A DNA stretch of 64,000 nt, taken from positions 125,225 through 189,224 of the forward strand of contig CAVYSY010000003.1 in assembly GCA_963771175.1 (NCBI GenBank), in the 5' to 3' direction. Position numbers and translations under genes: made by a program. The notes under the pieces were generated by a model that worked only from the letters and a program-made list of their open reading frames with translations, did no database searches and was not told the origin of the DNA. This document shows, piece by piece, positions 11,236-55,279 of the stretch; position 1 is the first letter of the stretch, and each line of letters starts with the position of its first letter. The stretch comes from an uncultured delta proteobacterium. GTDB taxonomy: Bacteria; Myxococcota; Myxococcia; Myxococcales; Myxococcaceae.

Positions 11236-11282
11236 GCTCGTGCCCGACCCGGCGGCGGTGGCTTTCCCCGGGTGACCGTCAT

Positions 11283-18752: not shown

Positions 18753-18768
18753 GATGGGTACTCCCACC

Positions 18769-19521
18769 TCAGCGACGGCCCCGCGTGCGCGAGATGAGCG
18801 CCGCGTAGAAGCCGCCACCGAAGCCGTTGTCGATGTTCATCGTCGCGACGTTGGAGGCGCACGAATTCACCATCGCCAGCAGCGCGGACACGCCGCCGAA
18901 GTTGGCCCCGTACCCCACGGACGTCGGCACCGCCACCACGGGGATGCCCACCAGCCCGCCCAACGCGCTCGCCAGCGCGCCCTCCATGCCGGCGACCACC
19001 ACCGCCGCGTGCGCGTCTTGAATCTCCTCGCGACGCCGCAGCAGCCGGTGGATGCCCGCCACCCCGACGTCGTACACGCGCTTCACCGTGGCGCCCATGG
19101 CCTCCGCGGTGATGGCCGCCTCCTCCGCCACGGGGATGTCACTGGTGCCCGCGGTCACCACCGCCACCTTGCCCGCCTTCGGCTTGCCCTGCTTCAAGTG
19201 GAAGATGCGCGCCACGGGGTGGTACTGGCCCTTGGGGAAGGCGGCCAGCAGGGCCTCGGCCTTCTCCGGCTGCAGCCGGGTCACCAGCACCGTCTGCTTG
19301 CGCTCCACCAGCGCGCCCACGATGCCCATCACCTGCTCCGCCGTCTTCGGTTCACCCAGCACCACTTCCGGGAAGCCGAAACGCAGGCTGCGGTGGGTGT
19401 CCAGGGTGGCATAGCCGAGCTCGGCGAACGGCAGGTCCTTGAGCCGGCCCACGGCGTCATCCACGGAGACCTTGCCGCCCTTCACCTGTTCGAGCAATCG
19501 GGTGAGCGTCTTCTCGTCCAT
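18769..19521 (-). CDS. larB: Nickel pincer cofactor biosynthesis protein LarB (PurE-like)
   Basis: TAGTSDIPVAEEA, DVGVAGIHRL, VAGMEGAL, AVPTSVGYG, NIDNGFGG. Confidence 0.95.
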   Translation of the reverse strand: MDEKTLTRLLEQVKGGKVSVDDAVGRLKDLPFAELGYATLDTHRSLRFGFPEVVLGEPKTAEQVMGIVGALVERKQTVLVTRLQPEKAEALLAAFPKGQYHPVARIFHLKQGKPKAGKVAVVTAGTSDIPVAEEAAITAEAMGATVKRVYDVGVAGIHRLLRRREEIQDAHAAVVVAGMEGALASALGGLVGIPVVAVPTSVGYGANFGGVSALLAMVNSCASNVATMNIDNGFGGGFYAALISRTRGRR

Positions 19522-19694
19522 GCGCGCCCCTGTACCGCACTGTGGGGGGCGGAGGAATGAGGAGAGTGCGAAACCTGCTCCCCGGGGGCCTGCCCGCCAT
19601 GTGAGGGGGCAGGCCCTCCCGGGTGGGAGAGGGCACGAGGGCCGGCCGAGCAAGCCCGGCCCCCGTACCCGACTACGAGGAACGACGGGACTCG

Positions 19695-23955
<4,261 letters not shown>

Positions 23956-24312
23956 TCGGTACACCTTCTTCCGCGAACCAGCCATCCCGGAACGGAACGG
24001 CCGACACACCCGTTGGAGCCGGAGGGAGACACCTCGGCGCGACCGCCTCGAGAGGCCGCGGTCCCGCCGGAGCATCCAGCAACGTATAACAGAGTGGCTC
24101 CAGGGCGTTCACCGGGGGCGACCCGAATTCAGGTAGCCCCGCCCCATCTCGCTCCACGGACGCCGTACGCGATTTGGGACTCCTTCCCATGAGGTCGTGC
24201 GCCACAAGGATGCGATCTGACAGGAGAGAGTGGCTGGCCCAGGGATTGCGATGCCCGGGTCGGCCTCACTCCATTGGCCGCACCTGAATCAGCACAAGCA
24301 AAGGACACAGCG

Positions 24313-26251
24313 ATGCACCACAAGACCTGGGCCCTGAGAGCCGCGCTCCTCTGTGCGCTGGCACTGACAGCCTGCTTTGAACTCCCGCAGGTAGATCCGG
24401 GCGTCCCCACCACCACGCGCCCGCTGCTCAACGGCACCGTGCCGGGCAACGCCGCCGTGGCGCCCGTGAGCACGCGTATCGAGCTCAACTTCTCCACGCC
24501 CATGGACACGAGCTCCGTGATGGTGGGCGCCGTGCCCGCCATCACCCTGGGCCCCCCGACCTGGAATACCGACCAGACCCAGGTCATCTTCCAGCCGGCG
24601 GCCGAGCTCCTCCATGACACCCGTTACACCCTGACGGTGTCGGGCCGAGACCCCGCGGGCAACAACCTGGACGGGCAGAGCACCGTCACCTTCACGACCG
24701 CTCGGGAGCAGCTCGCCTCGACGCTCTCCGCGAGCACTCCCGCCCAGGACGCGACCTACGTGGCGGTGAACACGCAGGTGGTGCTCACCTTCTCCGAGCC
24801 GATGAACCCGTCACAGCTCTCGGTCGTGCTCAGCCCCGCGACCGCCAACCTGAGCAACCCGTCCTGGAGCAGCGACAACCGGACGGTGACGTTCACTCCC
24901 ACGCCCGTGCTGCGGTACGGCACCAACTACACCTTGAGCATCCAGGGCGAGGATGCCGCCGGCAACGTGCTGGCCGCCACGACGGTGGGCTTCATGACGC
25001 AGAGCCTGCCGGACACCACGCCCCCCAGCGTGCAGGGCAGCACGCCCGCCGACAACGCGCCTGGGGTGGACATCAACGCCAACCTCTCCCTCAGCTTCTC
25101 CGAAGCGATGGACACCGCGTCCACGGAGCCTGCGTTCTCCATCAATCCCAATGTCATCGGCACGCTGTCGTGGAACCAGGAGCGGACGCTGCTGACCTTC
25201 AATCCCACGGCCTCGCTCGACTACAACAAGGTCTATACGGTGACCCTGGGCACGGGCGCCATGGACGCCGCGGGCAACGCGCTGGCCTCGCCGTTCAGCG
25301 TCAAGTTCACCACCAGCAACGCCCCGGACCTGACCCGGCCGCAGGTCACCAGCTACAGCCCGAACAACACGCAGACGGGCATGAGTCGCTCGCAGAGCAT
25401 CAGCGTGACGTTCTCCGAGCCGATGGACAAGCAGTCCACCCAGAACGCCTTCACCCTCGTGAGCCCCAGCGGAATCTCCGGCACGTTCTCCTGGAGCGCC
25501 GATGGCAGGACAATGACCTTCACGCCCTCGACCCTCATCGACTACGGGACGTACCTCACCTGGCACATCTCCACCGTGGCCAGAGATGTCGCCGGCAACC
25601 CGCTGCAGGCGACAGTCGAGGCCAACTTCAGGGTCATCCAGCAGATCACCGTGGATCTGCCAACGGTGTCTGACAGTGAGGGTAGCGTTGCCTATGACAT
25701 CACCCGCCAGACCTATCCTGCCGAACGCTGTCAACGCTACCTGGACGAGTCACGGTGTGGGTCTGAGTTACAAAGCCGAGTTCTCCGGCCCGGCGCCCCA
25801 CCTTCTATCCCCAAGCAGGCAGGGCCTTCATGACGTTCGACCTGAGTCCACTTCCCGCAGGACTTACCGCCATCACGGGCGCCAATCTGAACGTCTATGT
25901 CAACAGTATCAGCAACGATCCGTTCTCCCGGTTTGGAGAGCTCAAAGATCTCGAGCGGGGATTACGGCTACACCCTCGACACAAGCGATTACGCGAACGC
26001 CACCGTCTACAGTTCCATCGACCTGGCGCCCAACCAGCACCGGTCAGAAATCCGTCGCCGTCCATTCCGCGGTTGATGCGGACTGGCGCAACCAGGGCTC
26101 TCGTGGCAAGCGCACCCAGTTCAGACTGCACTTCAACGTCCCCGACAACATCACCAGCTCCAGTCTCAATCCAGGCTTTACAGGAGTCGCCCTGGACTCC
26201 GGACGCGGAACCAACAAGCCCACCCTGAGGGTCGTCTACGAGGTTCCGTAG
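24313..26251 (+). CDS. Lipoprotein with four bacterial Ig-like (Big_5-type) domains and a divergent C-terminal domain (frameshifts after ~25700)
   Basis: Lipobox ALTAC; four copies of P...V...I.L.FS(E/T)(P/A)M(D/N)...W...F.P...L.....Y......DxAGN. Confidence 0.85.
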
Positions 26252-26392
26252 TCAGGTAAATGCCGGGTGTCCTGCCTGAGGGCCGCCTCTGCCTCCAGGG
26301 GCATTTTCGGCCCCCCAAGAGGCGACACACCCGCCACGCCTTTACCGGCTGCGGCTGGAATGGGCTCCGAGGCACTGTTAAGCCTTGGGCCC

Positions 26393-28068
26393 ATGCCGCA
26401 CGCCCGCCTCCCGCGCCTTCTCCCCGTCCTCACCCTGACGGCTTGCATCTCGGGCCCGACCACGCCCACCGGGAACGAGCCCGCAGCGACAACCCCCGTG
26501 GAGCTGGCTCCGCCCGCGGGCAACCAGTGGTACCAGCACGCCGTCTTCTACGAGGTCTTCGTCCGCAGCTTCCAGGACTCCAACGGAGACGGCAAAGGCG
26601 ACCTGCCCGGCCTCATCTCGCGCCTGGACTACCTCAACGACGGCGACCCGAACACCACCACGGACCTCGGCGTGGACGCGCTGTGGCTGATGCCCGTCTT
26701 CGACTCGCCCAGCTACCACGGCTACGACGTGATGGACTACGCGCGCATCCACCCGGACTACGGCACCGTGGAGGACTTCGAGCGGCTGCTGCACCGAAGC
26801 GCCCACCGTCGGGGCATGCGCGTCATCGTCGACCTCGTGCTCAACCACACCAGCTCGCAGCACCCGTGGTTCGTGGAGTCCGCCTCAGCTCCGGACTCGC
26901 CCAGGCGCGACTGGTACATGTGGAGCGACAAGCGACCTGGGCTGGAAGCCGCCCTGGGACATCTTCGCCTCAGGCACCACCTGGCACGCGCACAACGGCG
27001 CGTACTACTACGGCGTCTTCTGGGGCGGCATGCCGGACCTCAACCTCGAAGACGCCCGCGGTGCGCGAGGAGGTCAAGCGCATCGCCTCCTCCTGGCTGG
27101 CCAAGGGCGTGGACGGCTTCCGGCTGGACGCGGCGCGCTACCTCATCGAGACGGGCGGCGGGCTGACGAGCCAGGCCGACACGACAGAGACGCACGCCTT
27201 CTGGAAGGAGTTCGCCGCGCATGTGCGCGGGGTGAAGCCGGACGCGGTGCTGGTGGGAGAGAACTGGACCACCACGCCGCTCATCGCCACGTACTACGGC
27301 TCCACGGCCCGGGTACCCGGCGGGGACGAGCTGCCACTCAACTTCAACTTCCCCCTGGCCGAGCAGATGATGGCAGCGGCCCGGGAGGGCAACGCCACGG
27401 GCCTGGCCCTCAAGCTGGCGGAGATGCGCACCCATTACCCCGCGGGCGTGGCGGATGCGCCCTTCCTCACCAACCACGACCATGTGCGCGTGGCCACGCA
27501 GTTGGAGCAGCACGCGGGCCGGCTGGCCAACGCGGCGGCCCTGCTGCTCACCTTGCCCGGCGCGCCCTTCCTCTACTACGGCGAGGAGGTGGGCTTGGCC
27601 AATGGCACCACCCGCAACGACGAGGCCAAGCGTACGCCCATGCCCTGGAATGCCGACACGGGCGGAGGCTTCACCACCGGCTCTCCCTGGTTCTCCTTCG
27701 CCCCGGGTCGCGAGCAGTCCAACGTGGCCACGCAGGTGGGTGCCCCCAGCTCCCTGCTCTCGCGCTACCGCGCCCTCATCCACGCCCGCCACGCCTCGGT
27801 GGCCCTAGCTCGCGGGGGCCTCACCCTGCTCACCTCCACCCAGGGCCACTCGCCCACGTTCGCCTTCGTGCGCACGCTGGGCGAGGAGCGAGTGCTGGTG
27901 GTGCACAACCTCACCGACTCCTCCGTGAGGGCCGGCCCCTTCGCACTGCCGGGGGAGTCCGCCGAGGTGCTCTTCGCCGACCCCTCCGTGGGCTCACCCC
28001 TCGGGAGGGACGGGAGTTGGAGCGTCACCCTGCCCGCTCGTGCCACCGGCATCTGGCGCCTGCGGTAG
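26393..28068 (+). CDS. GH13 alpha-amylase family lipoprotein (frameshifts near 26940 and 27050)
   Basis: Lipobox [63 protein letters not shown]. Confidence 0.92.
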
Positions 28069-29029
28069 AGCGGGCGAAGCAGGCACTACCGCCGGCCATG
28101 GCGGGGCCCTCGGTCCGAGCACCTCCTCCTGACGCACGCCCTGGGGCACCAGCAGGTCCACCACGGGCGACTGACCCGGATCTCCGAGGCGCCCGCCGCC
28201 GAAGCGCTCCGCGGACACGCCCGGGCCAATGCCCAGCACCATCATCCCTTGCGGGGCGGCGTGGTGAGGCCGCCGAGGAAGGCGGGCATCTCCACCCGGC
28301 GCTCCAGCCAGGTCCCGGTGACGGCCACCGCGTAGCCCCAGGTGGCCTGGGCTTGGCCCCCGAGGAAGTCCTCCGGGACGAAGAAGGACACAGTGGGGCC
28401 GATGATGTGGATGCGCGTGGGGAAGAAGACATGCGCCGCCAACTGCCGTTCCACCTGCTCATCCACGGCGCGCACGGCCGACTCGCTCAGGGCCCCCTGC
28501 GCGCTGCTGGGCCTCCATGCGCGCCTGCTCCCGCCACAGCTTGCGCAGCACGTCGCGCGCCTCGTAGGGCCTCGGAGTGAGGACGAGGGCCTTCTCCCAG
28601 GCACTGCCCGGCGCGAGCACGAGGTTGCGGCCGGGCAGCGTGTCCGTGCGGCCCGAGCCCTCCGCGCGGTCCCTGTCCACGTACACGTCCAGGTTGAGGG
28701 TGTAGAAGCCGTGACGGGCCAGGTCCGCCACCGTGGTGCCCGCCGCGTCCACCGTGCGCCCGCGGCGGCCTGGGAATGGGCCGGGCGAAGGTGGCCTCGA
28801 AGCGCGTCCCCCCGCTCTCGGCGTACGCGCGGAAGGCCAGCACATCTAACGCGCCGGGCTGCAGGTCGTCGCGGCGCAGCGGGTAGCGCAGTTCTCCATC
28901 CCCATGGTCGTCCCCGCGCGGGTCCTCCAAGGTGAAGAGCAGCGTGTCACCCCGCGTGCCGCGCGCCTGGCAGGCGCAGGCCAGCACGGACATCAGCAGG
29001 GGCAGGGAGAGGCGGCGGAGCAGCATCAT
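27994..29029 (-). CDS. Glucodextranase-C/DOMON-like domain lipoprotein (frameshifted; 3' end approximate)
   Basis: Lipobox-like LACAC; LEDPRGDDHGDGELRYP, LNLDVYVD, LPGRNL, AWEKA, WGYAVAV, FGGG..GD...VVDLL. Confidence 0.75.
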
Positions 29030-29061
29030 GGCGGAAGTTCCTCGGGGGCCAGAAAACACGA

Positions 29062-29096
29062 GGGGCCCGGCGGGCGTCACCGCGCGCCGGGCCCCC
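29062..29096 (-). terminator. GC-rich hairpin downstream of the outer-membrane protein gene
   Basis: GGGGCCCGGCG...CGCCGGGCCCC, 11 bp inverted repeat about 20 bp past the stop. Confidence 0.6.
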
Positions 29097-29115
29097 TAGG
29101 ACTGTGGGAGGACGA

Positions 29116-31337
29116 CTAGAACTGCGCCTTCATGAACATCTTGAGACGCATGTGCTCGAAGTTGCGCGTCTCCAGGCTGTTCCAGCCACCGTAGCGGCCG
29201 GAGAAGCCACTCGAGCCCTCCGCGACGTTGTGGTCCGCGGCGATCGTCTCGTCGGCGATCTGAGGCACGAAGCCCGTGCCGAAGTCCGGCGTGAAGCTAC
29301 CAAAGGCGTACTGGCCCTCGAGACCGAACTCCACGCCCGCCAGGATGTACTTGGCCCGGAGGGAGAGCTGGTTGCGGTCGTGCTTGCCGGACACCATCTC
29401 GTGCATGTTGTACCCCTGGAGGGCGGTGTTGCCGTCCTTCAGGTCCACCAGGAACTTGGTGTAGCCCAGCGACATGTACAGGTCGTCCGTCAGCTGGTAG
29501 CCCGCGCCGATGTTGAAGCTGGTGTAGTTCAGCTCGCGATCGTCATCCGCGATGTTGTCGAAGGGCTTCCACTTGTAGCCCGTCACCCCGTCGACGGTGA
29601 TGGGGTCCGGGTTGCTGAAGTAGTCGCCAGTGCTGTTGCCCTCGCTGTACTCGCGCTTGTTGTCGGCGCACCCCGAGCCATCCGCCGCGCAGTCCCCGTC
29701 CTGGTAGGGCAGGTACTTGGCGTCGTTCAGGCGCTTGTCGTTCTCGTAGATGTACTTGACCTTGCCGAACACGTCGACGCCGCGGCCGAAGTCCAGCACG
29801 TAGCGGGCCTTGGCCACCAGGATGTGGGTCTGCTTGTCCTGGAAGGGCTGGTAGGCGCTGCGGAAGTTGTGGCCGACTCCGGTGTCCAGTTCCGCGCCCG
29901 GGTAGTCAGTGTTGGTGATGGACCGGGAGTCGTCACCCCAGGCCTGCCAGTTGGTGTTGTAGGTAATGAACGAGTACTCACCGGACAGGTCCAGCGCGCC
30001 GTTGGTGAACACCGGGTTGAGGGTCAGGCCCTGCCAGCCGATGGCCGTCTCCGCCATGGGCTCGTCGAAGTCGGTGAACTCGTTGTCCACGTTGATGGTG
30101 GCGACCTGCTGGGTCTCGTTGGTCCAACCGCCGTAGCCGATGCGGCTGGGGTTGCCCTTGAAGACGCCGTAGCCGGCATTGGAGGGACCGGGGAAGGCGA
30201 ACGAGGCGTCGTGGCCTTCGGTCAGCAGCACGTCCGACTCACGCCGGGCGGCCATGATCGACACGTAGTCGGCGCCGATGCTGAACGCCTGCGCGTTGAG
30301 AGACAGGCCGATGTCCAGCGGGTCGCTGACCGTGACGTCGAGCTTCCAGGTGTTGTCCTCCGTCTTGCCCGCCAGCACCGGCGAGTAGCCGTTGATGCCG
30401 AAGCTCTTGGGCACCCAGCGCGGATCCTTGTCGTCGGTGCCGAAGCAGTTCGTGTTCTCCGCGTGCATGTACGAGCGGTAGAAGGCAGCCGCGCACGTCC
30501 ACGGAGGAGCCGAGGTGGAGGCCGGCCTTGAGGCCGCCCACGCCGTTGCGGAAGCGCGGGTAGAGGTCCCGCCCGTTGTCCAGTGTGGAGTCCGAGGTGT
30601 TCAGCTCGTTGTCGATGGCGTACTGGAAGATGCCACCCACGTCGAACATGTCGTTGACGACGTACTTGGTCTGGAAGACGTAGGCGGCGTCCGTGGCGTG
30701 GAAGGCGCCCGTCTTGTAGTTGGGGCCGGCCCACAAGCGGGGCAGGGAGATGCCGGCCGCGTCCCACGTCAGCTTGCGCTCGAGCGCCGAGCCCTGGACG
30801 AGCACGCCGTAGGCGTTGTCGCGGTCGATGTAGCGGATACGGCCGACGACGTGCGGGTCGAACTGACCGAAGTCGTTGGCACCGATGGTGGCCGAGTCGA
30901 CGAGGTAGCCCGGCGTCAGGGTGACGGCGAGGCCACGCAGCTTGATGTACTGGTTGGAGCGCTGGTCGAACTCGCCGCAGTTACCGGCGGTGCAGTTGGC
31001 GGAGGGGCTCCCGCCGAAGCCGCCGAAGTTCGTCCAGAAGTTCTGGCTGAAGCGGCTGTGGAGGCGACCGCGCACCTCGACCGCGCTGGACAGCCGCGCG
31101 TTGAGGAGCAGCTCGAGTTCGGTGCCGATACCGTTCTCGCCGTAGCCCTCATCCGGGATGGTGGTGAAGTTGAACATCGCGCCCTGGCTGCGCTGGTTGC
31201 CGTACAGCCACTTGGTGTACGTCGTGCCGCCAATCTTGAGCGTAGGCGACCGAATCCTGGGCCATGGAAGCAGCGGGCAGCAGGGAGGCAGCGGCGGTCA
31301 GGGCAACAGCGCCCTTCCGCATGGACTTCATCTTCAT
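29116..31337 (-). CDS. Putative outer-membrane beta-barrel protein, ~740 aa (frameshifts near 30485 and 31230)
   Basis: Sec signal MKMKSMRKGAVALTAAASLLPAASMA; alternating amphipathic strands rich in G/Y/F/N/D; C-terminus RLKMFMKAQF ending in Phe. Confidence 0.75.
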
Positions 31338-31451
31338 GAGTGATTCCCCTCTCTTGGCAGCCAATACCGGGAAGGGGGCTTCCCGGCTGCCGGTGCGAGC
31401 GGTTCCTCACCGCTCGCACGGCCATCCGGCAGAAACTCGACTCTGGGAAGA

Positions 31452-32291
31452 CTACTTCTGCTCCTCGGCCACCGGCTTCTTCGCGCCGCCCACCATGGTG
31501 AGCGTGGCGGGCTTCTTCGCGGAGCCGTCCTCGGCGCACTCGTAGCTCAGCATCTCGTGCTGGGCCTTCACCTCGGAGGCGTCGCCCTTGCCCTCGCCGG
31601 CGAGCACGTCGATGGCGTGCGGATCGCAGTCGCCGTCGTTGCCGCCGCCGAAGCGGTGCTGGCCCTCGTACTCGTTCACCTTGCGGGTCAGCAGGTCATT
31701 GCCCGCGGGGAAGCCCTCGTTGGACTGCACCACCACCTGGAAGTGCCACTGCGAGGGGTCACCCTCCAGGCCGGCCAGGTCCACGGTGGAGCTCACCTTG
31801 CGGCCCGAGCCCTTGGTGCGGTTGGGGACGAGGACGTTGTCCTTGGCGGCGCCGGCCTTGTTGCCCGCCTCGGCCTTCACGCGCGCGGAGTTCTGCGGCG
31901 AGATGATGATGACCTTCTCCCAGGCGTTCGCCGGGGCGAACTTCACGTTCAGGCCGGGCAGACCCTCGGTGGAGCCGCTGCCCTCCTTGCCGTCCGTGTC
32001 GATGAAGACGAAGGCCATCTGCACGGAGAACCCGTTGCCCATCTTCCACGCGTCCTCGAGCGTGGTGTTGAAGCCCAGGGTGATGTCCGCCTTGGAGCCC
32101 TTCTTCTCGAAGGTGAAGTCCGTCAGGTCGAACGAGCCGCGCTTGTACACGGTGTCGGTCGGGTACTTGTAGCTACCCGGACCGTTGTCGTCACCGGTCG
32201 GGTCCTTGAAGGACACCTTGTCACCGGCCAGGGCGGGGGCGCCCAGGAGCGCCGCGGCCAGGGAGATCACAGCGAAACGCGAGGTCTTCAT
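31452..32291 (-). CDS. Exported stand-alone glucodextranase-C/DOMON-like domain protein
   Basis: Signal peptide; FKDPTGDDNGPGSYKYPTD...GSFDL, GFSVQMAFVFID, LPGLNV, WEK, FGGG...AIDVL. Confidence 0.85.
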   Translation of the reverse strand: MKTSRFAVISLAAALLGAPALAGDKVSFKDPTGDDNGPGSYKYPTDTVYKRGSFDLTDFTFEKKGSKADITLGFNTTLEDAWKMGNGFSVQMAFVFIDTDGKEGSGSTEGLPGLNVKFAPANAWEKVIIISPQNSARVKAEAGNKAGAAKDNVLVPNRTKGSGRKVSSTVDLAGLEGDPSQWHFQVVVQSNEGFPAGNDLLTRKVNEYEGQHRFGGGNDGDCDPHAIDVLAGEGKGDASEVKAQHEMLSYECAEDGSAKKPATLTMVGGAKKPVAEEQK

Positions 32292-32322
32292 TTGTAACTT
32301 CTCCTTGCTGAGAGAACGACGA

Positions 32323-33201
32323 CTAGCCCTTGACGCTCCCGGCGGTGAGGCCGGACACGAGGTACTTCTGGAGGAACAGGAAGAGGATGACGACGGGCAC
32401 CGAGACGATGATGGAGCCGGCGGCGAAGTAGCCCCACTGCTGCGAGAAGCCGCCCACGAAGAAGCGCAGGCCCACCGGCGCCGTGTACATCGCCTCCTGA
32501 TCCATGAAGGTCGCCGCGAGGATGAACTCGTTCCACGCGGTCATGAACGAGAAGAGCGCCGTCACCGCCACCGCCGGCTTGGCCAGCGGCAGGATGATGG
32601 TCCAGAAGATCTTCCCCACCGAGGCGCCCTCGATGAGCGCGGCCTCCTCCAGGTCCTTGGGAATGGTGTCGAAGTACCCCTTGAGCATCCACACGCTGAA
32701 GGGGATGGAGGTGGTGGCGTAGACGATCATCAGACCGAAGCGCGAGCTGCCCAGCCCCAGCCACTGCACCAGGATGATGTAGAGGGGAATGAGCATCAGC
32801 GTGCCCGGGAACATCTGGGACACGAGGAAGGCCATCATGCCCGCGCGCTGGCCCGGGAACTTGAAGCGGCTGAAGGCGTAGGCCGCGGTGCAGGCGAGGA
32901 ACACGCCCACCACCGTGGTGCCCAGCGCGATGATGGCGCTGTTGAACATCCACTGTCCGAAGGGCTGCTTCGTCATCACATCGACGAAGTTCGCGCCCGA
33001 CCACGTCTCCGGCCACGGCGTGACGGCACGCACGCGGTCCATGAACGTGGGCTCGGCGGGCAGCGTGGAGATGGCCAGGCTCTGCTTGCCCGAGAAGGCA
33101 ATCGAGATGACCCAGAGGATGGGGTAGATGGTGAAGAGGGTGAACCCCGTCAGCAGCACGTGCAGCGGCCAGTGGGGCACCCCATCGCGACGCGAGAACA
33201 T
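32323..33201 (-). CDS. malG: Maltodextrin ABC transporter permease MalG
   Basis: AAYAFSRFKF, QMFPG, KGYFDTIPKDLEEAALIEGAS, WNEFILA, FLQKYLVSGLTAGSVKG. Confidence 0.95.
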   Translation of the reverse strand: MFSRRDGVPHWPLHVLLTGFTLFTIYPILWVISIAFSGKQSLAISTLPAEPTFMDRVRAVTPWPETWSGANFVDVMTKQPFGQWMFNSAIIALGTTVVGVFLACTAAYAFSRFKFPGQRAGMMAFLVSQMFPGTLMLIPLYIILVQWLGLGSSRFGLMIVYATTSIPFSVWMLKGYFDTIPKDLEEAALIEGASVGKIFWTIILPLAKPAVAVTALFSFMTAWNEFILAATFMDQEAMYTAPVGLRFFVGGFSQQWGYFAAGSIIVSVPVVILFLFLQKYLVSGLTAGSVKG

Positions 33202-35269
33202 CAGGCGGCCTCCGTGGCGCGGGACATGCGGTTCTGCACCACGCTGTAGAGCAGCAGGATGCCGAAGATGACGGTCGAGTACGCCGCCGCGTACCCGTAG
33301 CGGTAGCGCTGGAAGGCGAACTTGTAGGCCTGGGTCACGAGGATTTCCGTCGAGTTGCCCGGCTCGCCCTCGGTCACCAGGAAGATGATGTTGAACATGT
33401 TGAAGGTCCAGACGACCGACAGGATGACGGCCGGGACCAGCGCGGGCTTGAGCGCGGGCAGGGTAATCGCGGTGAACTGCTGCCAGCGAGTGGCGCCGTC
33501 CACGCGCGCGGCCTCGTAGAGCTCCACCGGGATGGACGTCAGCGCGCCGAGCGACACCACCATCATGAAGGGGAAGCTGAGCCAGCCGTTGGTGGCCAGC
33601 GCCGTGAAGAACGAGGTGGTGGGCGTGTCGTACCAGGCGAGCGCCCTGGCCGCCGAACATCCGCAGGACGTGGTTCACCACGCCGAACTGCTGGTGGAAC
33701 ATGCCCTTCCAGATGAGCGCGGTGATGTAGTTGGGCATGGCCCACGGCAGGATGAGCAGCACGCGGTACACCGGCCGCAGCGCCAGCCCCTGCACGTTGA
33801 GCATGAGGGCCAGCACCAGGCCCACCGTCACGCCGATGGTCACGTTGGTGACCGTCCACACCACCGTGAAGAAGAGCGTGTAGTAGAAGTTGAGGTAGTT
33901 GAAGACGAGCGACCCGTCCTGCGCCCGCTTGGCGATGTTGAAGTCGCCGAGAATCTCCACGTAGTTGCGCAGGCCGACCCAGATGTCCGACAGCGGCTGC
34001 GCCGTGTTGTAGAGGTTGGAGTCGGTGAAGGACAGCGTAATCCCGTAGAAGAACGGGAAGAAGACGAGCACCACCATGCCCACCATGGCGGGGGCGATGT
34101 AGAGGTACGCGTCGCGGTACTCCACCACCGTGCTCACCGTCCGGGCCAGGCCGCCCATGCCGATGAAGAGCAGCAGCGCGAGCGACAGCACGCCCAGGGC
34201 ACCGAGCGCACGGCCCACGCCCGAGCTCAGCTCGCCCACGCGCGCGGAGACCACCGCCTCGTTCACCGCACCCTCGGGCGTGACCAGCCCGAGCGGACGG
34301 CGGAAGTGGTCCGCGTCCCAGGTGCCCGGCTGCAGCGCCGGCTCGACCGCGAGCTGACGCTCGGTCATCACGGCCTGGGCCCGCTCCGACATGGCGCGCA
34401 GTTGCCCGGCCACCACGGTCTGCGTCTGGCGCACCTCGGCGCCCAGCAGCTCTCGCGAGTAGGAGGCATAGCCGCCCAGGCCCACCGCGAGCGCCACCGC
34501 GGACACGGCGACGAGCGCGCCCTGACGGCGCACCACGAGGGACGCCGCGCCACACAGCGCCAGCGGCGCCAGGAACCACAGGAGCGCCGACCCCGTGCTC
34601 GGCTTCAGCGGGGCCGCCAGCGGGGCCGTGGCCAGCTCCACCAGGCCCACCACCGCGCCATCCACCTCCACCGGCGCGCTCAGCAGGCGCCCACCGTTGG
34701 GCAGCGCCTCGGTCTCCACCTCCACCTTGCGCGCGGAGCCCTCCTCGCGGTTCGTCTCCACCGCGGCGCGCAGTCGCTGGCCACGGTCGTAGAGGGGCTT
34801 CTCCTCGCGCGACAGCCGGCGCGGCGCCGCGCGCTCCCCCTGGTCCTCGGGGAAGGTGGAGGCCTCGAGCTGGATGCCCGAGAAGGCGATCACTCGCACC
34901 GCGCTGCCCGGCGGAAGCTGCTCCTTCCAGACGGACACCACGGCGCGCACGGAGTCACCCGAGCCCCCCGCGCGCTGGACCGAGGTCCTCCAGCGCACGC
35001 AGGGACACGAGGGCCTGTCGATCCGCGCGCTCGGTGGCGACGGTCTCCAGCGCCTGGGCCAGCAGGCCCTGGGCGAGCGCGAGGGACAGGCCGAGCGCGA
35101 GGCACAGCCCCACGAGCACCCGCACGGGGCGGAGCGCACCAGGACCCCGCGGGCCGCCCGAGGGAGACTCCGCGAGGTGGAGGGCATCGGTGGCACCGGG
35201 CTCGTCGAGCCGGTGGGCAGCGGTACCCCCGCGTTCGTCACTGGAAGGGTGTGGGGCCGTGTTGCTCAC
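33201..35269 (-). CDS. malF: Maltodextrin ABC transporter permease MalF with long N-terminal extension (frameshifts near 33645 and 34980)
   Basis: YLYIAPA, WVGLRNY, LLILPWAMP, ELYEAARVDGATRWQQFTAITLP, FNMFNIIFL. Confidence 0.9.
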
Positions 35270-35277
35270 TCAGTGCC

Positions 35278-36507
35278 TCACTTCTTGCGCAGACCGGCCA
35301 CGTCCTTGGCGACGGCCTTCTGGGCGACGTCGAGGGCGGCCTTGGGGGTGGAAGCCTTCTTGAGGATGGAGTTCATCGCCGAGGTGGCCGGCGACCAGAC
35401 CATCGTCATCTCCGGCACGTTGGGCATCGGCACCGCCACCTCGACCTGGTCGCGGAACGCCTTGAGCTGCGAGTCCGCGGAGACCTTCGCGTCGGAGTAC
35501 ACGCCCTGGTTGGCGGGGCTCTGGCGGCCCTCCAGCGCGAGCACCTTGGAGGCCTCGTCGCTGGTGAGGAACTTCGCCACCTCGAAGGCGGCGTCCTTGT
35601 TCTTCGACGGAGCGGCGACGTAGACGCCCTCCACCGTCATCCACGGACGCATGGGCTTGCCACCGGCCTCGTCCAGCGTGGGCAGCGGGGCCAGGCCGTA
35701 GTCCACGCCCTTGGCGATCTCCCCGAGGAACCAGGGGCCGGAGAACACCATGGCCGCCTTGCCCTCGTTGAAGAGCGAGGTGATGAGCGCGGAGGAAGGC
35801 TCGGCGGGCATGATGCCGTCCTTCTCCGCCCACTTCATCACCTGCTCCACCGACTTCACGTTCTGCGCGGAGTTCAGGGTGGGGGTGACGCCCGGGCCGA
35901 ACACGCCACCGCCGAAGCCGTTCATCAGGGCCGCGTGGTAGTAGAAGTCACCGTAGGAGTAGGCGAGACCGAAGCGGCCGGCCTTCTTGTCGGTGAGCTT
36001 CTTGGCCAGCTTCACCAGCTCGCCGCTCGTCTTGGGCGGGGTGGGGACGAGCTTCTTGTTGTAGATGAGCGTGATGACCTTGTAGTTCAGCGGCAGGCCG
36101 TAGACGGTGCCGCGGTAGGTCATCGCCTCCATCGTGGTGGGGATGAAGCGCTTGCGGATGGCGTCATCCAGGTAGAAGTCGACGGGCTCCACCGTGTTGC
36201 CGGCTTCAATCCACCCACCCAGACGGTCCTGGGCGAAGATGAACAGGTCCGGACCCTTGCCGCGCGGCACGGTGGCGGAGATCTTGTCCGCGTAGGCGTC
36301 ATACGGCACCGCCAGCGTCTTCACCTGGATGCCCTTGGAGGCATTGGCGGCGTTGAACTGGGCGATCACCTTCTCCAGCGCGGCCTTCTCCTCGGCGCGG
36401 TAGGCGTGCCACAGGACGATCTCCTTCGTCTCGGCGGCGGCGGTCGTGGACGTCAGGCCGAGCGCACACAGGCACGCGGCCGCGAGCATCAGTCGCAGGT
36501 TCTTCAT
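35278..36507 (-). CDS. malE: Maltose/maltodextrin-binding periplasmic protein
   Basis: Signal peptide; GPDLFIFAQDRLGGW, YGLP, LIYNKKLV, AAMVFSGPW, PMPNVPEMTMVW. Confidence 0.92.
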   Translation of the reverse strand: MKNLRLMLAAACLCALGLTSTTAAAETKEIVLWHAYRAEEKAALEKVIAQFNAANASKGIQVKTLAVPYDAYADKISATVPRGKGPDLFIFAQDRLGGWIEAGNTVEPVDFYLDDAIRKRFIPTTMEAMTYRGTVYGLPLNYKVITLIYNKKLVPTPPKTSGELVKLAKKLTDKKAGRFGLAYSYGDFYYHAALMNGFGGGVFGPGVTPTLNSAQNVKSVEQVMKWAEKDGIMPAEPSSALITSLFNEGKAAMVFSGPWFLGEIAKGVDYGLAPLPTLDEAGGKPMRPWMTVEGVYVAAPSKNKDAAFEVAKFLTSDEASKVLALEGRQSPANQGVYSDAKVSADSQLKAFRDQVEVAVPMPNVPEMTMVWSPATSAMNSILKKASTPKAALDVAQKAVAKDVAGLRKK

Positions 36508-36529
36508 GTCGGGAAGCTCCCAGGGGTGA

Positions 36530-37625
<1,096 letters not shown>

Positions 37626-37692
37626 TTTCAGGCTCTCCCCACTCGGGCACACCCTGGGTGGCCCAGCTGCCTGGTTACGAACTGCGTTCTCA

Positions 37693-39316
37693 CTACCGGG
37701 CCCGCCCCAGGATGCGGACGGACATCGGCTCGACGGAGACCTCCATCGACGGGCTGGCCGCCACCCGGCCCCCCTCCATCAGGTCCTCGGCATCCGCGCC
37801 GCTCCAGGCCTCGGGCCAGGGGAACGAGATGGACTGCTTCTTGTTGCTCCGGTTCACCGCCACCACCACCGCGTCACCGGACTCGGGCTCGTGCCGGATG
37901 AAGGCATAGACGTCGCCCTCGGTGGCGAGCCCCTTGTGCGTGCCACGCGCGAGCGCCGGGTGCGCCCGGCGGACGGCGATGAGCTGCTGGTAGAACTGGC
38001 GCAGCGACTCGTCGCGAGGCAGGCCCGTGCCGGGCTGCACCGCGCGCTCGCCCCAGGGCATGTCGCTCCGGTTGGCCGGCCAGTCACCACCGGGACGGCC
38101 CACCTCCTCGCCGTAGTAGATGACGGGGATGCCGGAGGTGGTGAGCTGCAGCGCCGCCGCGAGCCGGAAGAGCGCCTTGTCGCCCTGGAGCTGGAAGAGC
38201 GCACCGGGCACGTCGTGCGAGGACAGGAAGTGCGACAGGTGGTAGCCCTTGCGGACCTTGTGCCGCGAGCGGAGGTAGGCGTCGAAGGCCACGGTGCGCC
38301 CGCGCCCCTGCACCCACGCGAGCGCGCTGCCCTGGAAGCCGAAGTCGAAGCCGGCGTCCATCTCGTCCGTGGAGAACCACGGCTCGAGCGACGTCGCGGT
38401 CCCCGCCCCACACCTCGCCGAGCAGGAAGAAGTCCTTGCCCAGCTCCTCGCGGGTGCGGCGGCGGTGCTCCTGCCAGAAGGGGTGGTCCACGTGCTTCAC
38501 CGTGTCCAGCCGGAAGCCGTCCACCCCCGAGCGCTTGCCCCAGGACAGCTGCGCGTCGAGCAGGTACTTCGCCACCTCGGGCTGCTCCGTCTTGAAGTCC
38601 GGCAGGCCGGACACGCAGCTCGTCAGGTCATCCTGTCCGCAGGTGCCCTTCTCCTCCGAGCGCAGCCAGCCGCGCGTCTCGGGCGCCTGGAGGTACTTCG
38701 AGAGGTAGCCGGGGTGGTTGTAGACCACGTCCAGCAGCACGCGGATGCCCCGCTGGTGGCACGCGTCCACCAGCGCCTTCAGCTCCTGCTCGGTGCCGAA
38801 GCGCGGGTCAATCCGCTGGAAGTCATCGGCCCAGTAGCCGTGGTAGCCCCAGTCCGGGAAGCCGGCGCCGGTGACGAAGCCGTCGATGTTCTTCACCACC
38901 GGGGTAATCCAGAGCGCCGTCACGCCCAGCGAGGACAGCTCGTCGAGCTGCGCGTGCAGGCCCTTGAAGTCGCCGCCGTGGAAGGCGCCGGGGGCCTTCT
39001 TGTCCACCTTGACGTTGTTGCTGGGGTCACCGTCCGCGAAGCGGTCCAGCACGACGAAGTAGAGGACCTCGTCGGACCAGCGGCGGGCAGGAGCGGGAGC
39101 CGCGGCGGGCGCGGGTGCCGGAGCAGGAACGGGCGTCGCGGTCGCCGTGTCGGGCGACGCGCTCGTGCCCACCTCGGAGGTTGCACTCTCGGCTGGGGGC
39201 GGCTGCGAGTGAGCGCAGCCGGTGAGCGCCAGCGGAAGAAGCAACAACGAAGTCGCAACGGAGTGAAGAATGTTCGCGCGTCTGGCCGGGGGGCAACAAG
39301 GCGACGAAGCAACCAT
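37693..39316 (-). CDS. GH13 alpha-amylase/cyclomaltodextrinase-like lipoprotein (frameshift near 38390; start uncertain)
   Basis: Lipobox [56 protein letters not shown]. Confidence 0.9.
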
Positions 39317-39492
39317 TGCGCGGGACTTTTCCACACCCGCTATGGAAAGTGAACCCTCCCACTTCGGATGTCACGGAACAGCAGTGAATCCGAGAAGTTA
39401 CCTTGTCCCGTTCACGAGAAGCGCGCCGGCAAAGCACGCGCGGTCGGTTACGCGCCGTGTCAAACCCTTGCATCACGCAAGCGATGTCCGCG

Positions 39493-39906
39493 TCAGGGCA
39501 GATTGTTCATCCGATCTTCGACCTGGACCGGATCGGCCTTGCCCACGTCCTTGATGACGATGATCTCCCGGGCCACCATCTCCATGTCGTTGTTGGCGAA
39601 GGAGGCGCGTACGGTGGAGCCGGGCGCGAGGAACTCACGGCCCACCTGCTTGCCGCCCTGGTAGTAGCGCGTCTGGTCGGTGATGCGCAGGTAGCGCGTC
39701 TTGCCCCACTTGTCCTCGATGACGAGTGTGTCCGAGTACTCACCGGTGACGGTGCCCTTCATCATGAAGCCCCGCTCGAGCGAGTAGGGGTTCTTCGCGA
39801 TGGGGCCCTCGCTCCCCGAGGACTTGCGCATCGCCACCGTCCCACCCGTCCGGCAGCCCGCGAGCACCACCGCGCCCAGCACCGCGCCCCAGATGACTCC
39901 CCGCAT
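39493..39906 (-). CDS. Small hypothetical lipoprotein (possible OB-fold)
   Basis: MRGVIWGAVLGAVVLAGC lipobox; GGGGGAG RBS; beta-rich body. Confidence 0.7.
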   Translation of the reverse strand: MRGVIWGAVLGAVVLAGCRTGGTVAMRKSSGSEGPIAKNPYSLERGFMMKGTVTGEYSDTLVIEDKWGKTRYLRITDQTRYYQGGKQVGREFLAPGSTVRASFANNDMEMVAREIIVIKDVGKADPVQVEDRMNNLP

Positions 39907-40019
39907 GCTCGCTCCCCCCGCGGGGCGCGACACCGTGGCCCCACGGTGGGTGAAGTTGGGGCCGGAGCGAAGGGGTCGCAAGCAGCACCTCGGGACGACT
40001 GCCCGGCTGCCCTCGGGCG

Positions 40020-40616
40020 TCAGACGCCGAGCTGGGCGAGCAACGCCCTGGAGCTCTCGCGATCCAACACCAGCAGCACCTGGCCGGACACCGCGGGCGC
40101 GCCCACCGCCGAGAAGCGCGTCTCCAGCACCACCACGCGGTCGTCGCCCCGGGCCTCCGTCACCGCGTCCGACAGCACCGGGCCCGCCGCGCCTCGCACC
40201 AGCACCGGCACCGAGGGCAGCAGCCTCCAGCCCGTGAGCGTGCCGATGGCCGACAGGCACGCACTGGCCACGATGTTCGCCGTCTCCGACAGCGCGCTCT
40301 CACGCTCCTCCGGCGGAGCGTCCTGACGCCGCAGCAGCAGCGCCTCCAGCGCCGCGCTGTCCTCCACGGGGAGGATGAGCAACAGCATGCCCCGGAGCTG
40401 TCCCTGCATGCCCAGCTTCGCGGCCACCACGGGGGCCTCGCCCCCGCCCAGCAGCTCGGCCACTTCCGAGGCCCCGGCCATCATGGCGCGCGGCACGGAC
40501 AGGTGCACCGTGCGGCCACCCACCAGCTTCGCGAGCGCGCTGACGGCGTGCCCGCAGCCGATGTTGGCCACCTCGCGAAGGGCGTCCAGCTGAATGTCGC
40601 TCGGATGAGGGCTCAC
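40020..40616 (-). CDS. difG: CheC-family phosphatase (DifG-like)
   Basis: DALREVANIGCGHA and SALSETANIVAS motifs; last gene of the che cluster. Confidence 0.9.
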   Translation of the reverse strand: MSPHPSDIQLDALREVANIGCGHAVSALAKLVGGRTVHLSVPRAMMAGASEVAELLGGGEAPVVAAKLGMQGQLRGMLLLILPVEDSAALEALLLRRQDAPPEERESALSETANIVASACLSAIGTLTGWRLLPSVPVLVRGAAGPVLSDAVTEARGDDRVVVLETRFSAVGAPAVSGQVLLVLDRESSRALLAQLGV

Positions 40617-42806
40617 GCGGACAGTAACCTCGGCACGTCCAGGATGAAGACCGGGCGGCCACTCCCCAGGATGGTCACCCCGGAAAGACCCGGCAGCAAG
40701 TCCAAGGGCCGGGACAGCGGCTTGAGCACCGCCTCTTCCTGCCCCACCAGTCTGTCGACCGCGAGCGCGACCCGGCCCGCGTCTCCTTCCATCACCACGA
40801 AGGGCCTGGGGCCCTTGCGCGGGGGCGCGTCGAGGCCCACGAGCGCGTCCAGCCCGTACACCGGCAGCAACCCCTGACCATGCGGCAGCATCGGCGTCTC
40901 CCGGCTGCGCGTCAGGGCCTCGCCGTCCGCCTCCATCGCCCCCACCACCTTGGCGATGGGCAGGCCGAACACCTCGTCGCCCACCGCCACCAGCAGCAGG
41001 TGCACCACCGCCACCGTGAGCGGCAGCCGCAGCGTGAAGCGCGTCCCGCGCCCCAGCTCGCTCTCAATCTCCAGCGTCCCGCCCACGTTCTCCACCACCC
41101 GCTTCACCGCGTCCATGCCGACGCCGCGACCGGAGATGTCGGAGACGTCCTTCGCGGTGGAGACGCCCGGCAGACATGCGAGCAGGAAGGCCTCGCGGTC
41201 CGTCATCCGCGCCGCCGCCTCCGCGCTGATGGCGCCGCGAGTCACCGCCGCCGCCTTCAGCTTCGCCGCGTTCATGCCGCGGCCGTCGTCCTCCATCTCC
41301 AGCACCACGCGGTCGCGCGCGCGCCGCACCGACACCAGCACGCGTCCGCGCGGGCCCTTCCCCGCCGCCACCCGCTCCTCGGCCGGCTCCAGGCCGTGGT
41401 CGATGCAGTTGCGCAGCAGGTGCAGCAGCGGATCCGCCAGCTCGTCGAGGATGGCCCGGTCGAGCTCGATCTCCGCGCCGGTGATGACGAGGTCCACCTC
41501 GCGCTCCCGGCGCCGGGCGATGTCGCGCGCCGCGCGGGGCAGCCGGTCGGTGATGAGCGACAGCGGCGTCATGCGCGCGCTCATCACCTTGTCGTGCAGG
41601 TCCTTCACCAGCGCGTGCAGCCGGTAGACGCCCTCCTCGATGGGCGGGCGCGAGTTCTCCGGCAGCACCTTGCCCAGCTCGCGCAGGCGCGCGGTGGCCA
41701 GCAGCAGCTCGCCCACGGTGTCCAGGAAGTAGTCCAGCAGCTCGGTGCGCACGCGCACCGTGCGCGTCGACGCGTCCGCGCCCGCGGACCTGGAGGCGTC
41801 CGCCCCCGACTGGCTCACCGCCGCGACGGGCGGGGGCGGGGGCGCCACCACCGCTGGCTTCAGCGAGACGAGGTCCACCTCCGCCACGTTCCGCAGCGCC
41901 TTGCGGATGGTCTCCTCGCCCTCGGCCGTCTCCAGCTCGAGCTGGATCAGCCCCTCCGGGATGCGGCCGGCCTTGAGGTCCTCCAGCGGAGGCGTCAGGC
42001 CGTGCAGCGTCCCCAGGCCCGTCAGCCGCTTGTGCACCAGGAAGGCGCGCACGCCCGGCGTCTGGCAGGTGGGGGCGATGCGCAGCCGCACCGCCCAGCG
42101 CTTCGGCTCCTCTTCGGGCGTCGACTCCACTTCCACCTTCGACGCGGGCACGACCATCGCGACCCTGGCGGCCAGCTGGGTCGCCTCGGCGCTGGTGGCG
42201 GAGGCCGGCACCTCGACGGGGGGAGCGGGCACGGCGGGAGCAGGTGGGGCCTCGGCGGCGGCGACAGGCGCGGGGGCCGGAGCGTCGGCCGCGACCGGAA
42301 CAGAGGCCGCCACGCGAGCAGCGGCCACGACCGGAGCGGGGGCCGGAGCGTGCCTGCGCCGGAGTGCTGGGGGCTACGGAGGCGGACCGGGCCAGGACGC
42401 GCGTGGCGCCGGGTGCGCGGCCGGTGAGCACGGACACCCGGTCGGCGAGCTGACCGAGCAGCTCCGCGGCGTCATCGGGCGGCTTGTTCTCCGCCACGGC
42501 CCGCACCTGGGCCATCATCACGTCGGTGGCCGACAGGAGCAGGTCCACCAGGGTGCGCTCCAGCCGGCTCGGGTCCTGGCGGATGGCGTCCACCAGGTCC
42601 TCCACCCGGTGGGCCAGCACGGCGATGGGCTCGAAGCCCATGGACGAGGCCATGCCCTTGACCGAGTGCGCGTGGCGGAACATCGAGTCCACCACCGTGG
42701 GTGCCCCCTCGCGCTCCAGCTGCACGAGGTCCCGCCCCAGTCCCTCCAGGTGCTCGCTTGCCTCGGTGAGGAACAGACCGAGGTAGCGGGACATGTCCAT
42801 CGTCAT
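40613..42806 (-). CDS. difE: CheA histidine kinase (DifE-like; frameshift near 42350 in the linker)
   Basis: Hpt FRHAHSVKGMA; HLLRNCIDHG, DDGRG, GVSTAK, SGRGVGMD; C-terminal CheW domain. Confidence 0.93.
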
Positions 42807-42840
42807 GTCCGACCTCGAGCGCGCTGGGGCAGGGGGCCCT

Positions 42841-43209
42841 TCAACCCTCGCCCAACACCTTCTTGACGACCGCCAGCACGTCCTCCGCGCGGAACGGCTT
42901 GACGATGAAGTCCGAGGCTCCCGCCTCGATGGCCTCCATCACCAGGCTCTCCTGTCCCAGCGCCGAGCACATGATGACGACCGCGTTGGCGTCGAACTTG
43001 ATGATCTCCCGCGTGGCCTCGATGCCGCTCTTGAAGGGCATGACGATGTCCATCGTCGTCAGATCCGGCTTGAGCTCCTTGTACTTCTCCACGGCCTCCA
43101 GGCCGTTGGCCGCCTCTCCGACGACCTCGAAGCCACCGGACGCGAAGATGTCCTTGATCATGTTGCGCATGAAGATGGCATCGTCGACGACCAGCACCCG
43201 CTTAGCCAT
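42841..43209 (-). CDS. difD: CheY response regulator (DifD-like)
   Basis: VLVVDDAIFMR, MDIVMP, CSALGQ, FIVKPF. Confidence 0.95.
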   Translation of the reverse strand: MAKRVLVVDDAIFMRNMIKDIFASGGFEVVGEAANGLEAVEKYKELKPDLTTMDIVMPFKSGIEATREIIKFDANAVVIMCSALGQESLVMEAIEAGASDFIVKPFRAEDVLAVVKKVLGEG

Positions 43210-43281
43210 GTGCAGCTCCGCCTCCGCTTAAGGCCCCAAGAGGGGCGCGGACACTACCACCCGCCCATTTCAGGCGGCTAC

Positions 43282-43710: not shown

Positions 43711-43824
43711 GAGTCACTTTCTACCAGCAGCTCTCGGGTTCTGGGAAATTCGTGAAAGCAATCAAGTGCACAAGCCGCCACTTGCCCGGCCCCTCTTATA
43801 AGGAGCAGGGGAGGTGCCCACCAC

Positions 43825-54723: not shown

Positions 54724-55279
<556 letters not shown>

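Follow-up and report, generated by a model that had tools for sequence, protein, structure and literature searches.

A predicted 22-strand outer-membrane barrel with Glucodextran_C partners in a maltodextrin importer cassette of Myxococcota and Acidobacteriota

By which route do maltodextrins pass the outer membrane of soil bacteria? Outer-membrane uptake of starch and maltodextrins is understood through two models, the LamB-type porins and the SusC-like TonB-dependent transporters (TBDTs); Myxococcota and Acidobacteriota are abundant degraders of soil polymers whose outer-membrane entry routes for glycans are, to our knowledge, largely undescribed. The question is raised by a 64,000-nucleotide stretch of DNA from an uncultured delta proteobacterium of the Myxococcaceae (contig CAVYSY010000003.1; this whole stretch is called the window below), in which a gene for a predicted outer-membrane β-barrel accompanies those of a maltodextrin ATP-binding cassette (ABC) importer. 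The barrel family has no Pfam or NCBIfam model, yet in both phyla it belongs to a fixed eight-gene cassette with this importer, flanked by two Glucodextran_C (PF09985) proteins to which we give our own labels, GlucC1 and GlucC2. We propose, with a probability of roughly 60%, that the barrel works independently of TonB and would form, together with its Glucodextran_C partners, the outer-membrane part of a starch/maltodextrin importer. As such, the barrel is a new family and architecture for what would be a known task.

The barrel gene, its family and its predicted fold

A preliminary description of the window had placed a candidate maltodextrin channel of about 740 residues, once its frames were repaired, at 29116..31337; these coordinates are correct, and we add that the gene lies on the minus strand, where it starts with an ATG at 31337 and ends with a Phe codon (29121-29119) and the stop TAG (29118-29116). 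In the window the gene is spread over three reading frames, which we mapped by tblastn onto the closest intact homologue, P0003, a protein of 741 residues from Archangium sp.:

31251..31337, minus strand: piece A, with the start codon and the signal peptide, matching residues 1-29 of P0003 (26 of 29 identical by tblastn; translation)
30488..31249, minus strand: piece B, residues 29-282, holding strands 1-10, the start of strand 11 and loop L2 with CTAGNC (87% identity by tblastn; strand map of the model)
29116..30486, minus strand: piece C, residues 283-741 and the stop, holding the rest of strand 11, strands 12-22, loop L7, loop L9 with CAADGSGC and the ...FMKAQF end (85% identity by tblastn)

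Together, the three pieces cover the 741 residues of P0003 completely, at 85-90% identity and with zero residues missing, and their frames are separated by one extra base near 31250 and another near 30487. Does this gene still encode a protein? Two frame breaks could mean a true pseudogene, inactivated in the host organism and encoding nothing functional. Besides these two bases, however, the reading frame loses nothing, and the G+C content at third codon positions (GC3) of the pieces is 0.82-0.93, so that the gene shows no sign of decay. Furthermore, we set ten genes of the starch locus against their unbroken counterparts in L010, a locus in the complete genome of Archangium minus, and located single-base breaks all along 19698-39334: one each in the GH13 and malK genes, two each in malF, the barrel gene and the amylase gene, at least one in GlucC2 and several in the pullulanase gene. 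The genes of the binding protein, MalG and GlucC1 are unbroken, and every broken gene is intact in A. minus. Such a density of breaks, about one per 1.5-2 kb over the starch locus of some 20 kb, is the pattern of an error-prone assembly, and the barrel runs without a break along its whole length in 77 of 80 related loci; the three exceptions are cut by a contig end or partly covered. Because the neighbouring genes are broken alike and the barrel is whole in those 77 loci, the two breaks are most likely errors of assembly or sequence rather than biology, and we consider a pseudogene quite unlikely.

The family is large enough to exclude that the gene arose by chance: a word-indexed search returned 693 homologues at E<=1e-3 (best 1.6e-271), the full-length ones of 717-759 residues. 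At the same threshold, a set of 1.84 billion proteins yields 264 clusters of the family at 50% identity, and 252 matches were obtained among 185,579 species represented by one genome each. No Pfam domain is recorded for the homologues in precomputed annotation, and all named records listed read 'hypothetical protein' save P0026, labelled 'TonB-dependent receptor' automatically in UniRef. With Pfam and NCBIfam the window pieces gave zero matches for the barrel, and Pfam searches of 21 intact members including P0003 gave nothing at E<=1 beyond the partner domains of fused proteins and OMP_b-brl rows (E 0.0018-0.052) that stay under the cut-off of that family. When the profile of an alignment of 62 full-length homologues (A1) was compared with the sequences of every PDB chain at E<=10, it met only a chitinase (E 0.074), which we take as chance. 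No LamB, TBDT or other characterised family turned up in the Pfam, NCBIfam and PDB-sequence searches, which, together with the predicted barrel fold and the gene linkage described below, supports the earlier suggestion of a distinct family linked to maltodextrin uptake. Alignment-free look-alikes by language model (ESM Atlas) were DUF6029 (0.95), DUF1302 (0.94), Alginate_exp (0.93) and Porin_4 (within 0.93-0.95); HMMER confirmed none of these leads. A full-text literature search, whose coverage leaves out most subscription journals, yielded no paper on the barrel family or on the pairing of Glucodextran_C with a barrel.

The features of the protein are those of an outer-membrane barrel. Inspection of the translation by eye reveals a Sec-type signal peptide, MKMKSMRKGAVALTAAASLLPAASMA, at the N-terminus, and the C-terminal strand, ending in ...LKMFMKAQF, has the alternating hydrophobic pattern of barrel strands; its final residue, F741 in P0003 numbering, is invariant in 62/62 aligned homologues, and Phe is the last residue in 76 of the 80 loci. 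The motifs CTAGNC and CAADGSGC correspond to C114/C119 and C549/C556 of P0003, four cysteines that are likewise invariant in the 62 homologues and map to the predicted loops L2 and L9. The signal peptide, the terminal Phe and the paired cysteines in putative loops, all read previously from the DNA, thus hold, as do the amphipathic strands, of which two AlphaFold2 models contain 22.

The first of these models was built on A1 with P0003 as target, a protein 85% identical to that of the window, which is itself broken; its mean predicted local distance difference test score (pLDDT) is 76.8 and its predicted template modelling score (pTM) 0.78. All odd-to-even connections between its 22 long strands are long loops and all even-to-odd ones are turns of 2-7 residues, the predicted topology being the usual outer-membrane type with both termini in the periplasm. 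The second model, of a natural fusion protein described below (L034), has the same 22 strands at a pTM of 0.69. Strand 1 starts at about residue 31, some four residues past the signal peptide, and hence the protein lacks an N-terminal plug and offers no space for a TonB box; consistent with the absence of both in the preliminary description, Plug (PF07715) and TonB_dep_Rec (PF00593) were unmatched in the 21 family members at E<=1. Three loops, L3 (conservation 0.91), L7 (81 residues; 0.84) and L10 (0.88), stand out against the strands (0.59-0.87, mostly below 0.8), a pattern unlike that of general porins, which suggests that these loops bend into the lumen or form a fixed contact. A comparison by Foldseek with the PDB gave hundreds of generic barrel matches, among them AlgE, Campylobacter MOMP, MtrB, Cir, PiuA, OmpF and OccD, with template modelling (TM) scores, normalised to the query here and below unless stated, of 0.16-0.33. 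The fold check that had been called for thus returned a barrel with a TM score of at most 0.33 to any PDB entry; with the fusion model the same generic matches were recovered, LptD ranking 49th (0.18).

Glucodextran_C partners and the conserved cassette

The gene directly upstream of the barrel and that downstream of it encode the two partners:

31455..32318, minus strand: GlucC1, a secreted Glucodextran_C protein of ~285 residues, intact, directly upstream of the barrel (Pfam E 6.4e-56, 189.8 bits against a cut-off of 22; 82% to the A. minus orthologue)
28245..29035 (low end approximate), minus strand: GlucC2, a Glucodextran_C protein with a lipoprotein-type signal (..VLACAC..), split over frames (Pfam matches on two frames; tblastn; lipobox by inspection)

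GlucC1 carries a signal peptide of the ordinary type, and two of its cysteines are invariant; its orthologue in locus L001 aligns to residues 780-1001, that is domain C, of the Arthrobacter glucodextranase (1UG9/1ULV; E 1.5e-14). GlucC2 is the more divergent copy, with a helical insert; the A. minus protein matches PF09985 at 114.4 bits, and the signal is of lipoprotein type in the myxobacterial loci inspected and ordinary in two acidobacterial ones. The passages of a 2023 paper that concern Glucodextran_C (PMC10074034) assign it to the DOMON-like superfamily as a CBM9-like β-sandwich, and there kinetics are said to suggest a role in α-glucan recognition, sugar binding being stated as not shown.

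At the level of sequence, the strongest new evidence of a coupling between barrel and GlucC1 comes from three natural fusions, L034, P0148 and P0166, each in the order signal peptide, GlucC1-like domain, linker, barrel strand 1. The linkers measure about 28-57 residues, two of them being Ala- and Pro-rich. The L034 fusion is a close orthologue, with neither a stop codon nor an N in its sequence and with no separate signal peptide for the barrel, whereas P0148 (877 residues) and P0166 (959 residues) are distant members; the barrel of P0166 is 29% identical to P0003, and its fused domain is 43% identical to GlucC1 versus 26% to GlucC2. Another long member, P0322 (832 residues), carries no Pfam domain. 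Three further candidates for fusions, L054, L055 and L062, were discarded, a stop codon separating GlucC1 from the barrel in each.

We also predicted the complex of barrel residues 27-741 of P0003 (A1) with residues 1-250 of GlucC1 (alignment A2). Its median score is 0.39 (runs 0.58, 0.37 and 0.39), compared with 0.00 for the best of three controls, with a contact agreement of at least 51% and a partner pLDDT of at least 83. In the benchmark of the method, whose counts hold only roughly here because we used our own alignments, 116 of 157 solved complexes reached this mark, as did 2 of 215 mismatched pairs; scores of 0.60 or less were obtained for only 18 of the 157 solved complexes, and for both of the mismatched pairs that passed. 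As such, the prediction weakly supports the pairing of barrel and GlucC1.

How firmly is this pair tied to maltodextrin import? On the minus strand of the window, the order of genes is GH13, malK, MalE-like binding protein, malF, malG, GlucC1, barrel and GlucC2. The barrel had been described as following malG in the operon; it does share the strand of malG and lie downstream of it, yet the two are not adjacent, GlucC1 (32318-31455) being placed between them. The other members of the cassette, the convergent and neighbouring starch-degrading genes and a putative regulatory element are:

37696..39334, minus strand: GH13 α-glucosidase/amylase-like enzyme whose gene opens the cassette, split over two frames (Pfam Alpha-amylase)
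36533..37625, minus strand: malK-like ABC ATPase, in two frames (Pfam OB_MalK, TOBE_2)
35281..36507, minus strand: MalE-like solute-binding protein, intact (Pfam SBP_bac_1/SBP_bac_8; 92% to L010)
33204..35269, minus strand: malF-like ABC permease, in three frames (Pfam; L010 comparison, 687 residues in L010)
32326..33201, minus strand: malG-like ABC permease, intact (Pfam BPD_transp_1; 93% to L010 MalG)
29048..29096, minus strand: terminator- or attenuator-like hairpin, rich in GC and with a U-run behind it, in the gap that separates the barrel stop from the start of GlucC2 (folding energy -44.2 kcal/mol over 101 nt, z -2.0; 6 of 200 shuffled sequences fold as well)
26393..28065, plus strand: convergent secreted GH13 α-amylase with a SusG_C-like end, in three frames (Pfam; L010 comparison)
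19698..24108, minus strand: pullulanase, broken in the window, 1219 residues in L010 (Pfam X25, Pullulanase_N2, CBM_48, Pullul_strch_C)

Searching 10 kb on either side of the barrel by tblastn with the A. minus proteins in 80 related loci, the best-scoring of the 252 relatives, and counting only loci with enough flanking sequence, we found this arrangement kept almost throughout. GlucC1 immediately precedes the barrel in 77 of 79 loci, and GlucC2 lies downstream in 69 of 75; near the barrel are MalK (61/61), MalG (72/75), MalF (69/71), the binding protein (64/66) and the GH13 enzyme (55/57), and the amylase follows downstream in 46 of 61. The homologues therefore answer the question whether they always neighbour malEFG with a tight linkage to malEFGK, and no other outer-membrane channel gene was found in the cassette. 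The record titles assign the 80 loci to Myxococcota (Archangium, Vitiosangium, Cystobacter, Hyalangium, Corallococcus, Citreicoccus), Acidobacteriota (Thermoanaerobaculia, Holophagales) and to a few differently labelled metagenome-assembled genomes. The order of the eight genes is the same in both phyla, and in the non-myxobacterial loci the median identity to the A. minus proteins is 45-74% (barrel 54%, MalG 74%); because such values are high for phyla so distant, the sequences suggest that the whole cassette was transferred between them.

Two features inside the cassette deserve mention in their own right. The MalF-like permease is unusually long (33204-35269 in the window, 6049-8112 in L010): the Pfam transporter domain makes up its last ~200 residues, preceded by a large extra N-terminal or periplasmic region. 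The hairpin at 29048-29096 has 12 + 3 bp, is followed by UCGUGUUUUCU and lies ~20 nt past the barrel stop, where it could act as a terminator or attenuator setting the ratio of barrel to GlucC2. A scan for consensus terminators did not pick it up; over 27800-40000, consensus scanning gave 0 sites resembling promoters and 3 resembling terminators, fewer than shuffled sequence yields.

Proposed maltodextrin passage and the alternatives

In the reading we favour, the secreted amylase and the pullulanase of the locus would cleave starch outside the cell, and the maltodextrins would cross the outer membrane, probably passively, through the plugless 22-strand barrel, which gives no sign of TonB dependence and whose lumen is probably shaped by the long and unusually conserved loops L3, L7 and L10. 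The MalE-like binding protein and MalFGK2 would then import the sugars into the cell. The barrel would not act alone, being paired with GlucC1 and usually also with GlucC2, partners that may dock at its periplasmic side, bind the α-glucan chain and aid its capture or one-way passage. In the fusions the GlucC1 domain stands ahead of strand 1, whose N-terminus is expected to be periplasmic, and GlucC1 is therefore most likely located at the periplasmic mouth; there it could capture the emerging chain and bias its movement inwards before handing it over to the MalE-like protein. Alternatively, GlucC1 may be threaded outwards or inserted in the lumen. The preliminary description had spoken of a distinct sugar-specific porin family, and a distinct family tied to maltodextrin loci is what we find, but the flanking GlucC genes and the three fusions point to a multi-part device rather than to a stand-alone passive porin.

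Several observations weigh against this reading. In two acidobacterial loci, L056 (8860-12121) and L069 (about 8800-12058), malK lies directly upstream of the barrel, and within 10 kb there are neither GlucC1 or GlucC2 nor malEFG genes, the surroundings consisting of signalling and unrelated genes. The linkage as a whole is drawn from the 80 best-scoring of the 252 relatives. The most conserved loops, L3, L7 and L10, are also the least confident in the model (pLDDT 43-71), so that the lumen may be open or closed, and Foldseek places the barrel near no functional class, AlgE, MOMP, MtrB, TBDTs and LamB all scoring within 0.16-0.33. The fusion model has a low-confidence linker besides its pTM of 0.69, so that prediction does not fix the arrangement of the domains, and a search with this fusion showed no further close fusion among the 120 matches listed, all of which are unfused.

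A more specific form of the proposal is that barrel, GlucC1 and GlucC2 constitute a three-part translocon, in which a DOMON/CBM9-like sandwich would dock on, or partly in, the plugless 22-strand barrel and thread long α-glucans inwards without TonB, the cassette having apparently moved between Myxococcota and Acidobacteriota as a unit. This we regard as tentative, and on balance doubtful.

Could the barrel serve the partners instead of the sugar? It might be mainly a sheath or anchor that holds or exposes GlucC1 and GlucC2 at the surface, much as MtrB holds MtrA and LptD holds LptE; starch would be bound there by the partners, the sugars entering otherwise. The fusions fit such a role, and so do the GlucC1 genes immediately before the barrel (77 of 79 loci), the lipoprotein nature of GlucC2 in myxobacteria and the presence of MtrB (6r2q_B) among the Foldseek matches, yet the matches to MtrB and LptD are as weak as all others (0.18-0.31), and an N-terminal fusion puts GlucC1 in the periplasm unless it is threaded outwards. 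Moreover, a cassette built on this principle would be left with no other channel gene for the outer membrane, and in the acidobacterial loci L056 and L069 the barrel is retained beside malK with no GlucC genes nearby; we thus judge a sheath or anchor to be unlikely. The label of P0026 prompted a different idea, an energised TBDT-like transporter for which the separately encoded GlucC1 would serve as plug. The 22 predicted strands equal the number in TBDT barrels, TBDTs reach some of the highest TM scores in Foldseek (0.30-0.33), and in the three fusions GlucC1 occupies the position of a plug. However, the domain is separated from strand 1 by a linker of ~28-57 residues, and the conserved N-terminus of GlucC1 is common to glucodextranase domain C, hence part of the fold and not a TonB box. 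Nor did the sequences point to this class: besides the unmatched PF07715 and PF00593, no PDB sequence of any TBDT was matched at E<=10, and, in agreement with the earlier remark that the window lacks tonB, no TonB, ExbB or ExbD was matched among its 88 open reading frames that passed a GC3 filter, a set from which parts of 51-57 kb are left out and beyond which a tonB gene could lie elsewhere in the genome. Altogether, a TonB-energised transporter appears very unlikely.

Least probable is a porin of the AlgE/PgaA/Wzi type that would export polysaccharide and secrete α-glucan, which we consider hardly credible. AlgE has the best Foldseek E-values (9.5e-10), the look-alikes of the language model include DUF6029, DUF1302 and Alginate_exp, and DUF6029 is suspected of polysaccharide secretion in the part of PMC9603273 that mentions it. 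The TM scores to AlgE are just 0.24-0.26, however, the Atlas scores are leads without an alignment, and neither Alginate_exp nor DUF6029 was matched by Pfam at E<=1. The cassette, too, is of a catabolic, import type, with a solute-binding protein, MalFGK, GH13 and pullulanase, and its surroundings show neither a glycosyltransferase or synthase nor an outer-membrane gene for polysaccharide export.

Comparison with known systems places the proposed importer between several architectures. Like LamB (PF02264; 1MAL), the barrel would pass maltodextrins to MalE/MalFGK2, is encoded with malK and malEFG, starts with a signal peptide and ends in Phe; in E. coli, too, lamB has a neighbour for a further protein, MalM, a periplasmic protein of unassigned role encoded right after it. 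LamB has 18 strands and 421 residues, whereas the barrel has 22 predicted strands and, as had been noted, is far longer at ~740 residues. It shows no sequence similarity to LamB in the Pfam, NCBIfam and PDB-sequence searches (no PF02264 match at E<=1), and Foldseek aligns it to 1mal_A with a TM score of 0.23, or 0.45 when normalised to the target, at 8% identity. Conserved Glucodextran_C partners, sometimes fused, further set it apart. With SusC-type TonB-dependent glycan transporters, a class that includes Caulobacter MalA, the barrel shares the 22-strand size, the setting in starch/maltodextrin loci and accessory glycan-binding proteins, but it has no plug, no TonB box and no Plug or TonB_dep_Rec match, its TM scores to Cir, PiuA, XusA and BtuB are at most 0.33, and its partners are Glucodextran_C β-sandwiches where SusC systems have SusD-like proteins.

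The AlgE-type porins (PF13372; DUF6029) are comparable in that they conduct a linear polysaccharide and have loops lining the lumen, besides giving the best Foldseek E-values and the language-model look-alikes. AlgE itself has 18 strands; these porins export rather than import, measure ~430 residues in solved chains, and show a TM score of ~0.25 and no similarity at the level of hidden Markov models, DUF6029 (PF19494) being unmatched by Pfam at E<=1 in spite of its alignment-free Atlas score of 0.95. LptD/LptE and MtrB/MtrA/MtrC combine a large barrel with a soluble or lipoprotein partner, an architectural analogy only, as TM scores are 0.18 for LptD (9i95_A) and 0.25-0.31 for MtrB (6r2q_B), and substrates and gene contexts are unrelated. 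LptD carries a periplasmic β-jellyroll at its N-terminus, to which the N-terminal β-sandwich of the fused barrels may be likened. Finally, both partners match PF09985, and GlucC1 aligns to domain C of glucodextranase (1UG9/1ULV); in that enzyme the domain is the tail of a glycoside hydrolase, whereas here it stands by itself as a secreted protein or lipoprotein, or is joined to a membrane barrel.

Surroundings of the locus and meaning of the finding

Around the starch locus, several further features were recorded. Between pullulanase and amylase, the window encodes on the plus strand (24193-25830) a secreted protein with four Big_5 immunoglobulin-like repeats, a CopC-like domain and a PD40 repeat, which has no counterpart at this place in L010. 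On the minus strand at 17583-19803, larC-like (Ni_insertion) and larB-like (AIRC) genes adjoin the pullulanase gene, and the same pair follows pullulanase in L010. Directly upstream of the cassette, again on the minus strand (40023-45249), lies a chemotaxis cluster with CheA, CheC/CheX, CheY-like, CheW and a methyl-accepting chemotaxis protein; CheA and CheC/X flank the cassette in L010 too. The region 51300-57600 is very GC-rich (up to 0.76), and no open reading frame there passed the filter on GC3 and the G+C content at second codon positions (GC2).

In summary, our analysis describes a barrel family that accompanies a maltodextrin ABC importer in a conserved cassette of two phyla. If the barrel indeed forms the outer-membrane part of this importer, the missing outer-membrane step of these loci would be named, free-standing Glucodextran_C proteins would gain a function, the role of this domain being unproven so far, and starch-utilisation loci of soil metagenomes could be annotated with the barrel as a marker. 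Should barrel, GlucC1 and GlucC2 prove to be a three-part translocon, they would represent a third solution to glycan uptake, beside the LamB-type porins and the SusCD/TBDT systems.

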